5,353 nucleotides of DNA, from the NCBI RefSeq assembly GCF_003334315.1, contig NZ_QOWR01000096.1; one strand, given 5' to 3'. This document shows, piece by piece, positions 3,159-5,353 of this stretch. This DNA comes from Escherichia coli (GTDB lineage Bacteria; Pseudomonadota; Gammaproteobacteria; Enterobacterales; Enterobacteriaceae). Position 1 is the stretch's first letter, and the number at the start of each line of letters is the position of its first letter. Both the position numbers and the translations under genes were made by a program. Under the pieces are notes generated by a model, which ran no database searches, was not told where the DNA came from, and worked only from the letters and a program-made list of their open reading frames with translations.

Positions 3159-3551
3159 ATGAAAAGATTACGCAATAAAATGACCACCGAAGAACTGGCT
3201 GAATGCCTCGGTGTGGCTAAACAAACTGTTAACCGTTGGATCAGAGAAAAAGGCTGGAAAACGGAAAAATTTCCCGGCGTGAAAGGCGGTCGTGCCAGAC
3301 TTATTCTGGTCGATACGCAAGTTTGCGAGTTTATTCAGAACACGCCAGCCTTCCATAACACACCAATGTTGATGGAAGCTGAAGAGAGAATTGCTGAATA
3401 CGCTCCTGGAGCACGCGCCCCGGCGTATCGACAAATCATCAACGCGATAGATAATATGACAGACATTGAGCAGGAAAAAGTCGCGCAATTTTTGTCACGT
3501 GAAGGAATTCGCAATTTCCTCGCCCGTCTCGATATTGACGAATCAGCATAA
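3159..3551 (+). CDS. yfeD: YfeD, paralog of YfeC; small putative DNA-binding protein with the same HTH type; 130 aa
   Basis: ORF starts at ATG 3159, 1 nt after the yfeC stop (TAAtATG), with no convincing independent Shine-Dalgarno, which suggests translational coupling. The N-terminus EELAECLGVAKQTVNRWIREKGW and C-terminus align with YfeC at about half of positions by eye. Stop TAA at 3549-3551. Confidence 0.85.
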   Translation: MKRLRNKMTTEELAECLGVAKQTVNRWIREKGWKTEKFPGVKGGRARLILVDTQVCEFIQNTPAFHNTPMLMEAEERIAEYAPGARAPAYRQIINAIDNMTDIEQEKVAQFLSREGIRNFLARLDIDESA

Positions 3552-3593
3552 ATAAAAAACGGCAGGATATTATCTCCTGCCGTTTATCTTTTT
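3551..3593. terminator. Bidirectional rho-independent terminator shared by convergent yfeD (+) and gltX (-)
   Basis: Perfect 11-bp stem AAACGGCAGGA (3557-3567) / TCCTGCCGTTT (3575-3585) with a 7-nt loop. It is followed on the plus strand by ATCTTTTT and on the minus strand by TTTTTTATTT. It lies between the yfeD stop (3551) and the gltX stop (3603). Confidence 0.8.
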
Positions 3594-3602
3594 ACACGCT
3601 AA

Positions 3603-5018
3603 TTACTGCTGATTTTCGCGTTCAGCAATAAAATCCAGCGCTTTGTTGATACGCTCGATACTGCGGGTCTTACCAATTGCGTGAACGGTAACATCCAGTG
3701 CTGGAGACTGCCCCGCACCGGTTACGGCGACACGCAGCGGCATACCAACTTTACCCATACCCACTTCCAGCTCATCCGCCGTCGCCTGAATAGCGTGATG
3801 AACGTTTTCAGCGGTCCAGTCAGTAATCGCGGCCAGTTTGTCACGAACCACTTCCAGCGGCTGACGCGCTACCGGACGCAGATGTTTTTTCGCGGCGTCG
3901 GCATCGAACTCAGCAAAATCTTCGTAGAAATAACGGCAGCTCTGTGCCATCTCTTTCAGCGTCTTGCAGCGTTCGCCCAGCAGTTTCACCAGATCAGCCA
4001 GCTGCGGGCCGTTACGGGTATCGATATTTTCCTGCTCAATGTGCCACTGTAAGTGAGTAGCAACATACTCCGGCGGCAGCGCGTTAATGTAGTGATGGTT
4101 CAGCCACAGCAGCTTGTCGGTGTTGAACGCACTGGCAGATTTGCTGACGGCATTCAAAGTGAAGTATTTGATCATCTCTTCACGAGTGAAGATTTCCTGA
4201 TCGCCGTGGGACCAGCCCAGACGCACCAGATAGTTCAGCAGTGCTTCTGGCAAATAACCGTCATCACGATACTGCATTACGCTGACTGCCCCGTGACGTT
4301 TGGACAGTTTTTTACCGTCATCGCCATTGATCATAGAAACGTGCGCGTAAACCGGCACCGGCGCTTTCAGGGCCTTAAGAATGTTGATCTGGCGTGGCGT
4401 GTTGTTGATATGGTCTTCGCCACGGATAACGTGGGTGATTTCCATATCCCAGTCATCGACAACCACACAGAAGTTATAGGTTGGGGAACCATCGGTACGG
4501 CGGATAATAAGATCGTCCAGTTCCTGGTTGCTGAACTCGATCGGACCACGGATCTGATCGTCAAAAACAACAGAACCTTCCTGCGGGTTAGCAAAACGTA
4601 CAACACACGGTTCATCATCAGCATGATGCTCATGGCTGTGGCGGCAGCGACCGTCATAACGCGGCTTCTCACCTTTCGCCATTTGCTCTTCGCGCAGCGC
4701 TTCCAGGCGCTCTTTAGAGCAATAGCATTTATAAGCAGTGCCCTCTTCCAGCATCTGATCGATCACCGCGTTGTAGCGATCAAAACGTTTGGTCTGGTAG
4801 TACGGACCTTCATCCCACTCCAGGCTCAGCCAGTTCATGCCATCCATAATGGCTTCGATAGCTTCCGGCGTGGAACGCTCAAGATCGGTGTCTTCAATAC
4901 GCAGCACGAACTCACCGCCGTGGTTACGTGCAAAAAGCCAGGAGTAAAGAGCAGTACGCGCGCCGCCAACGTGCAGATAGCCTGTTGGGCTTGGCGCGAA
5001 GCGAGTTTTGATTTTCAT
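3603..5018 (-). CDS. gltX: Glutamyl-tRNA synthetase (GluRS), class I aminoacyl-tRNA synthetase; 471 aa
   Basis: Translation begins [27 protein letters not shown] with the class I HIGH motif (HVGG), contains the KMSKS-type motif KLSKR, and has the zinc-binding CYC...CRH segment of E. coli GluRS. ATG at 5018 is preceded by Shine-Dalgarno TAAGG; stop TAA at 3603-3605. The length matches E. coli GltX as I recall it. Confidence 0.97.
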
Positions 5019-5083
5019 GAAATGGCCTTACGTTTAGAAAGATGCCGACAACCGGCAAATCCTGGAAAAATTAAGTGGGCGAT

Positions 5084-5111
5084 ATTCTATCACTCCCGCC
5101 TGATTCCTCAA
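5084..5111 (-). promoter_or_regulatory. Candidate gltX promoter with extended -10 (-35 TTGAGG, 16-nt spacer, TGaTAGAAT)
   Basis: Minus strand reads TTGAGG (plus 5106-5111), a 16-nt spacer, then TGATAGAAT (-10 hexamer at plus 5084-5089), roughly 60 nt upstream of the gltX ATG. gltX is reported to have several promoters; the assignment here is a motif match only. Confidence 0.35.
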
Positions 5112-5136
5112 TGTAGTTCGGGTTTCTACCTTACGC

Positions 5137-5165
5137 ATTATTGTTTTCGTTGACAAATTGCGCAA
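5137..5165 (-). promoter_or_regulatory. Second candidate gltX promoter (-35 TTGCGC, 17-nt spacer, -10 AATAAT)
   Basis: Minus strand reads TTGCGC (plus 5160-5165), a 17-nt spacer, then AATAAT (plus 5137-5142). An overlapping alternative is TTGTCA with 17 nt to TAAGGT. Motif match only. Confidence 0.25.
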
Positions 5166-5231
5166 CACGGTCTGTTTTGCGATCATCTTGCTTAAATTTA
5201 CGACGAACGAACAATTTCTTTAGAAAATGCG

Positions 5232-5259
5232 TTGACTCATTTTGAACTCTCCCTATAAT
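5232..5259 (+). promoter_or_regulatory. valU tRNA operon promoter (-35 TTGACT, 16-nt spacer, -10 TATAAT, GC-rich discriminator, AT-rich upstream region)
   Basis: Plus strand has TTGACT (5232-5237) and consensus TATAAT (5254-5259), followed by the discriminator GCGACTCC. The tRNA begins at 5277, about 10 nt past the predicted start. Upstream 5190-5231 is AT-rich (UP-element-like). Confidence 0.8.
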
Positions 5260-5276
5260 GCGACTCCACACAGCGG

Positions 5277-5352
5277 GGGTGATTAGCTCAGCTGGGAGAG
5301 CACCTCCCTTACAAGGAGGGGGTCGGCGGTTCGATCCCGTCATCACCCACCA
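5277..5352 (+). tRNA. valU: tRNA-Val (anticodon UAC), 76 nt with encoded CCA; first gene of the valU operon
   Basis: Sequence GGGTGATTAGCTCAGCTGGGAGAGCACCTCCCTTACAAGGAGGGGGTCGGCGGTTCGATCCCGTCATCACCCACCA. Acceptor stem GGGUGAU/AUCACCC, anticodon loop CUUACAA (anticodon UAC), GGTTCGATCC T-arm. It ends 1 nt before the window edge. Confidence 0.95.
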
Positions 5353-5353
5353 C

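Follow-up and report, generated by a model that had tools for sequence, protein, structure and literature searches.

The divergent gltX–valU control region of Escherichia coli and its layout in Enterobacterales

How can one shared upstream region serve both a tRNA operon and the gene of an aminoacyl-tRNA synthetase? This question is raised by the 258-bp spacer between gltX and valU, which we examined within a window of 5,353 nucleotides (the whole stretch of DNA analyzed here; Escherichia coli assembly GCF_003334315.1, contig NZ_QOWR01000096.1). A preliminary description, made from the letters of this window alone, had placed the spacer at the gltX/valU locus. We found that positions 4900–5353 are 100% identical to K-12 MG1655 and have a match in every one of the 5426 complete E. 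coli genomes. The K-12 annotation of the flanks, gltX on one side and the first tRNA-Val gene of a Val-Val-Val-Lys cluster on the other, agrees with that placement. Because of this identity, data obtained with K-12 are directly applicable to the window. Published coordinates were converted by subtracting 2513676 from the NC_000913.2 position, and this conversion was checked against the limits of the gltX coding sequence.

The spacer is a control region already known from E. coli, with its two genes back to back, and the features assigned to it are real and were correctly interpreted. Judging by their titles, two papers were devoted to the gltX–valU locus (Brun et al. 1990, J Mol Biol 214:845, pmid 2201777; Champagne & Lapointe 1998, Mol Microbiol 27:1141, pmid 9570400). 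These titles speak of divergent, closely spaced and non-overlapping promoters and of an involvement of Fis, and that of the 1998 paper names FIS. As far as titles can tell, the preliminary description was right to present the locus as already described in these terms, and right to call it probably not new. The locus in the window is that of the published divergent promoter region; its sequence is identical, and it does not differ in kind. The coordinates of all features discussed below are collected in Table 1.

Table 1. Features of the gltX–valU region in window coordinates (offsets of Fis-type sites and of the UP element are relative to the predicted valU +1)
Feature	Position	Strand	Basis
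gltX coding sequence, glutamate--tRNA ligase, 471 aa	3603..5018; ATG 5018..5016	-	ORF list; RefSeq annotation of the identical K-12 sequence
gltX Shine-Dalgarno UAAGG, 7 nt before AUG	5026..5030	-	Read from sequence; block 5024-5030 conserved 70-99% in 69 orthologues
Small gltX leader hairpin, GCCGG-loop-CCGGC	5043..5057	-	In MFE fold, z = -0.9
Major gltX transcription start, 58-nt leader	5076	-	Kim et al. 2012 Table S1
Fourth Fis-type 15-mer, GGGCGATATTCTATC, score 8.0, highest in the spacer	5077-5091	.	Overlaps gltX -10 hexamer and start
gltX extended -10, TGaTAGAAT (TGATAGAAT)	5092..5084	-	Promoter scan; conservation; mapped start
Second, weaker gltX transcription start, 83-nt leader	5101	-	Kim et al. 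2012 Table S1
gltX -35 TTGAGG, 16-nt spacer to -10	5111..5106	-	Promoter scan; block 5102-5112 conserved 90-99%
Fis-type site III (candidate of the preliminary description), GTTGACAAATTGCGC, centre -112	5149..5163	.	44/69 orthologues, with 11 more at -111
Fis-type site II, GTCTGTTTTGCGATC, centre -91	5170..5184	.	58/69 orthologues
Fis-type site I, GCTTAAATTTACGAC, centre -71	5190..5204	.	G/C boundaries in 66/69 orthologues
valU UP element, -59 to -38	5209..5230	+	Match to AAAWWTWTTTTNNAAAA
valU core promoter: -35 TTGACT 5232-5237, 16-nt spacer, -10 TATAAT 5254-5259	5232..5259	+	11/12 consensus match
GC-rich discriminator GCGACTCC 5260-5267, predicted +1 A5268, 9-nt pre-tRNA leader	5260..5276	+	
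valU, tRNA-Val(UAC), first gene of valU-valX-valY-lysV	5277..5352	+	ARAGORN; Rfam tRNA 65.9 bits; K-12 annotation

An Rfam search returned tRNA and no other family. Two short minus-strand open reading frames, 5034–5186 and 5131–5346, run across the promoters and the tRNA gene and were treated as spurious.

Elsewhere in the window we noted several features that lie outside the spacer. At 2502–2577 the minus strand carries a single tRNA-Ala(GGC) gene, where K-12 MG1655 has the tandem pair alaX and alaW at the matching place; either this strain holds one repeat copy fewer, or the repeat was collapsed in the assembly. On the same strand, this gene is preceded by a near-consensus promoter (TTGACA-17-TATGAT, 11/12, 2610–2638) and followed by a strong intrinsic terminator (2471–2494), an arrangement that resembles the alaW-type tRNA operon reportedly described by Brun in 1990. 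Between the convergent genes yfeD (3159–3551, plus strand) and gltX, a hairpin with an 11-bp stem and T-runs on both strands (3557–3585) looks like a bidirectional terminator. The homologue of pdeA (yfeA) at 104–2410 on the minus strand has a longest reading frame of 768 aa from a GTG codon; the K-12 gene measures 2190 nt (729 aa), and the true start is probably further downstream than this GTG.

Two divergent promoters in a length-constrained spacer

For comparison across species, one genome per species was scanned with the first 200 residues of GltX, which yielded 80 Enterobacterales loci. In most of them a tRNA-Val gene stands upstream of gltX on the opposite strand, across a spacer of 256–277 bp. 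From these loci 69 distinct spacers were aligned; the orthologues are related, and some of the conservation reported here is inherited rather than selected. Conserved blocks cover 5084–5092, 5102–5112 and 5189–5276, and the middle of the spacer (5115–5185) is poorly conserved. In 41 of 56 orthologues exactly 184 bp separate the gltX -10 hexamer from the predicted valU +1, and in another 13 the distance is 187 bp, with the sequence in between free to vary. Spacers of 310–452 bp instead of 256–277 bp occur in Buttiauxella brennerae, Entomohabitans, Hafnia paralvei and two metagenome bins, which suggests an insertion in an otherwise length-constrained region.

A promoter scan of positions 4900–5353 returned exactly two promoters, that of valU and one for gltX on the minus strand, against 0.3 ± 0.6 in shuffled sequences. 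The plus-strand hexamer TTGACA at 5150–5155 was considered as a further promoter and discarded, as it has no -10 element at a usable distance. The two -35 hexamers of valU and gltX lie 120 bp apart, and the core promoters face away from each other on opposite strands without overlap. This distance places the region of Fis-type sites and UP element upstream of both promoters.

The valU hexamers are kept in nearly all of the 69 orthologues. The discriminator GCGACTCC, with G or C at six of eight positions, is invariant among them, and TATAATGCGACTCCA was found in every one (69/69). By analogy to the layout of rrnB P1, the transcription start of valU is predicted at A5268. When the UP-element consensus AAAWWTWTTTTNNAAAA (reportedly from the work of Estrem et al. 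in 1998) is searched with up to two mismatches, the sole match in the window is 5211–5227, with two mismatches, where 0.28 matches are expected anywhere. If A5268 is indeed +1, this match stands in the exact register of -57 to -41. The AAAA at -44 to -41 is invariant among the orthologues.

The model stable-RNA promoter is rrnB P1, which combines an UP element with three Fis sites. The valU promoter shares with it the TATAAT hexamer, an 8-nt GC-rich discriminator (GCGCCACC in rrnB P1), a start at A and a spacer of 16 bp, and between -36 and +1 the two agree at 24 of 38 bases. The UP element stands in the identical register in both, and a Fis-type site is centred exactly at -71. The two promoters differ in their -35 hexamers (TTGACT in valU, TTGTCA in rrnB P1) and in the positions of the distal sites, which are -91 and -112 in valU but -102 and -143 in rrnB P1. 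Unlike rrnB P1, the valU promoter has no second tandem (P2) promoter beside it, and a divergent protein-coding gene makes use of the same upstream sequence. Judged by its discriminator, the register of its UP element and the Fis-type motif at -71, the valU promoter would belong to the stable-RNA promoters of the rrn P1 type.

On the gltX side, three promoters were reportedly described by Brun in 1990. In the published data that we examined, gltX has two starts. Kim et al. 2012 (Table S1, PMC3415461) list a start at 2518752 of NC_000913.2 with 33 reads, corresponding to window position 5076, and another at 2518777 with 19 reads, corresponding to 5101. The upstream sequence that these authors print for the former ends in TTGAGGAATCAGGCGGGAGTGATAGAATATCGCCCA, and we therefore assign this start to the extended -10 promoter. 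In the alignment of 69 orthologues, the hexamer and the TG of this element are conserved to 90–99%, and the base between them, the "n" of the motif, is variable (about 60%). Before the start at 5101 we found weak hexamers only (TACATT, 5115..5110). Another minus-strand candidate, TTGCGC-17-AATAAT (5165..5137), was rejected, as it is poorly kept among the orthologues and no start in the data examined belongs to it.

These observations bear out most of what the preliminary description had said about the promoters. The near-consensus valU promoter with its GC-rich discriminator lies where it had been placed, and the distance from the gltX ATG to the valU -35, given as about 215 bp, measures 214 bp. 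The extended -10 of gltX on the opposite strand is present and passes the scan. Mapping of start sites had been proposed as a check, and for gltX the published record answers it, with the major start 8 nt past the end of the extended -10 hexamer. The mention of several gltX promoter candidates was generous: one candidate passes the scan, while the second start is known from the data and is accompanied by weak hexamers.

Phased Fis-type sites upstream of valU

The preliminary description had also singled out 5149–5163 as a Fis candidate, and the 15-mer at exactly these positions, GTTGACAAATTGCGC, does fit the degenerate pattern GN3AN5TN3C. We counted 28 occurrences of this pattern in the window, where 20.3 ± 4.3 are expected, or about one per 258 bp. 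Since its matches occur at chance level, a match in a single sequence carries no information and has no discriminating power, and any weight must come from comparison between species.

For this comparison the 69 spacers were anchored without gaps on TATAATGCGACTCCA, and 15-mers with G at -7 and C at +7 were counted. Relative to the predicted valU +1, such 15-mers are centred at -71 in 66 of the 69 orthologues, at -91 in 58 and at -112 in 44 (with 11 more at -111); a further peak stands at -184 (51/69). The median for other offsets is 0.5 of 69. When conservation had been gauged by identity to E. coli, the site at 5149–5163 was initially read as unconserved; anchoring on the valU promoter reversed this reading.

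The motif rules of Hancock 2016 ask for G and C at ±7, an A/T-rich centre, pyrimidine-purine steps at ±(3–4) or ±(4–5), and T/A at ±8; G at -8 is inhibitory. Site I has T at -8, TA at -4/-3, the centre AATTT, and CG at +4/+5. Across the orthologues its positions -6/-5 vary freely, -4/-3 are always TA, and the centre swaps between A and T only. At site II the best-conserved columns are G at -98 (93%) and C at -84 (87%), the rest of the block staying at or below 62%; at three positions of the centre, 96–99% of the sequences have A or T, with no single base dominant. In E. coli this site is weaker, with the centre TTTTG and a simple score of 6.5. Site III has TG at -5/-4 and at +3/+4 and one C in its centre, and its counterparts in relatives differ in sequence yet still fit (for example GTTTAGAAATCATGC and GTATATAAATCATGC). 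Taken as sequence motifs, all three sites would thus conform to the rules for Fis binding, and the column profile, with its conserved boundaries and A/T centre and no constraint elsewhere, bears the Fis signature.

The E. coli sequence by itself shows a modest enrichment. With a simple Fis score of at least 7, there are 16 matches in 5353 bp, and three of these fall in the 258-bp spacer, where 0.77 are expected. As a positive control, the same threshold applied to rrnB P1 (NC_000913.3) marks only -71, -102 and -143, the positions at which the three Fis sites of rrnB P1 are established. The evidence from other species is stronger than this score alone. The candidate at 5149–5163 therefore holds up by virtue of its position, kept in 55 of 69 orthologues at -112 or -111, and not by its pattern, which occurs at chance level; the sites at -71 and -91 had been missed. 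That the candidate is the distal member of three phased, putative Fis sites is the sole refinement that we add to the preliminary account.

The spacing recalls another tRNA operon: in the upstream activating sequence of tyrT, three phased Fis sites are found at -71, -91 and -122. The promoters of tyrT and valU both drive tRNA operons and both carry a triplet of Fis sites, putative ones in valU, aligned along one face of the helix. The two proximal positions, -71 and -91, agree, and the third lies at -112 in valU and at -122 in tyrT. In rrnB P1, most of the activation comes from site I. By analogy, the site at -71 should matter most for activation of valU. Seen from gltX, sites III, II and I are centred at -55, -76 and -96 from the start at 5101, and site III at -80 from the start at 5076.

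The peak at -184 corresponds to GGGCGATATTCTATC, a 15-mer that retains its G and C at ±7 in 51 of 69 orthologues. Conservation of the gltX promoter may explain this peak, and the two causes are inseparable here.

Possible modes of control

The reading that best explains these data, and that we hold with high confidence, is that of the known gltX / valU–valX–valY–lysV control region with an rrn-P1-type valU promoter, three Fis-type sites and an extended -10 promoter for gltX. The Fis-type sites at -71, -91 and -112, about two helical turns apart, would form the upstream activating region of valU. During rapid growth, RNA polymerase would be recruited by the UP element and by Fis bound at -71, with assistance from the -91 and -112 sites, which share its helical face. 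Fis and the alpha C-terminal domains of the polymerase would jointly sustain a high level of valU transcription that follows the growth phase. Through the GC-rich discriminator, ppGpp and DksA would restrain the same promoter. Transcription of gltX proceeds mainly from the extended -10 promoter, with its start at 5076, 192 bp away on the other strand, and to a lesser extent from 5101. The same Fis-bent region, along with transcription-induced supercoiling, may modulate gltX.

A narrower interpretation holds that -71 is the only working Fis site, and that 5149–5163 and the site at -91 are matches by chance or structural elements of A/T-rich bent DNA without a specific protein. The chance-level frequency of the degenerate pattern agrees with this interpretation, as do the score of 6.5 for site II in E. 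coli and the composition of site III, which has C at -2 and lacks a pyrimidine-purine step at -4/-3; the dominance of site I in rrnB P1 points the same way. It is difficult to reconcile with the columns at -91, where a G and a C 14 bp apart are the only well-conserved positions (93% and 87%) in otherwise free sequence. Curvature alone is also hard to invoke for boundaries kept in 55 of 69 orthologues at -112 or -111. We regard this interpretation as unlikely. More improbable still, by a wide step, is that some protein other than Fis binds the conserved motifs, or that these serve mainly as upstream elements of the gltX promoters themselves. In favour of such a reading stand the positions of the motifs at -55, -76 and -96 from the gltX start at 5101, the fixed spacing between the gltX -10 and the valU +1, and a FabR ChIP-chip peak in the gltX–valU spacer of Salmonella (PMC4804515, Table 2). 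However, this peak is listed beside others at tRNA and ribosomal promoters and was left unpursued by its authors; ChIP peaks at highly transcribed loci of this kind are often non-specific, and very high transcription alone may be its cause. The motif features are Fis-specific, the offset of site I matches that of rrnB P1, and the 1998 title names FIS at this very locus.

The gltX leader could add another layer of control, if its hairpin and the interrupted U-rich run that follows, UCUUUCUAAA (5057..5034, minus strand), were to act as a transcription attenuator. A scan did report a terminator-like site here, and Mendoza-Vargas 2009 (Table S6) predicts a "translational attenuator" over window positions 5026–5073, which covers the hairpin; the same study has one read whose 5' end falls within the hairpin loop, at 5051. 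This read and this prediction are not strong evidence. Chance would yield 0.7 terminator-like matches where one was reported, the z-score of the fold is -0.9, and the U-tract is interrupted. The hairpin is present in Enterobacteriaceae but lost in Erwinia, Pantoea and Rahnella; its stability is not significant, and the orthologues yielded no consensus structure. Attenuation at this point thus appears very improbable to us. The leader also contains a CUUUC that, according to what Brun is said to have proposed in 1990, resembles the anticodon of tRNA-Glu. As a mimic of the tRNA-Glu anticodon loop this motif was set aside, as it is not conserved and reads CUUUA in most relatives.

Beyond the known control region, we considered a more speculative extension, to which we give little credence at present. 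The sites at -71, -91 and -112, together with GGGCGATATTCTATC at 5077–5091 over the -10 and start of gltX and the 184-bp spacing, might form a deeply conserved and rigid bidirectional module across Enterobacterales, in which Fis would simultaneously turn the tRNA operon on and the main synthetase promoter off. If true, this would amount to anti-correlated control of tRNA and synthetase, which is not known to have been described at such resolution.

As to mechanism, nothing new is learned from this locus. A loose Fis pattern match is meaningless by itself, though here it falls on a positionally conserved site. What the comparison of orthologues does show is that the layout of three sites with fixed spacing is conserved across Enterobacterales. 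The gltX–valU region offers a textbook-style case in which a single upstream region, common to both sides, links the provision of tRNAs with that of an aminoacyl-tRNA synthetase.
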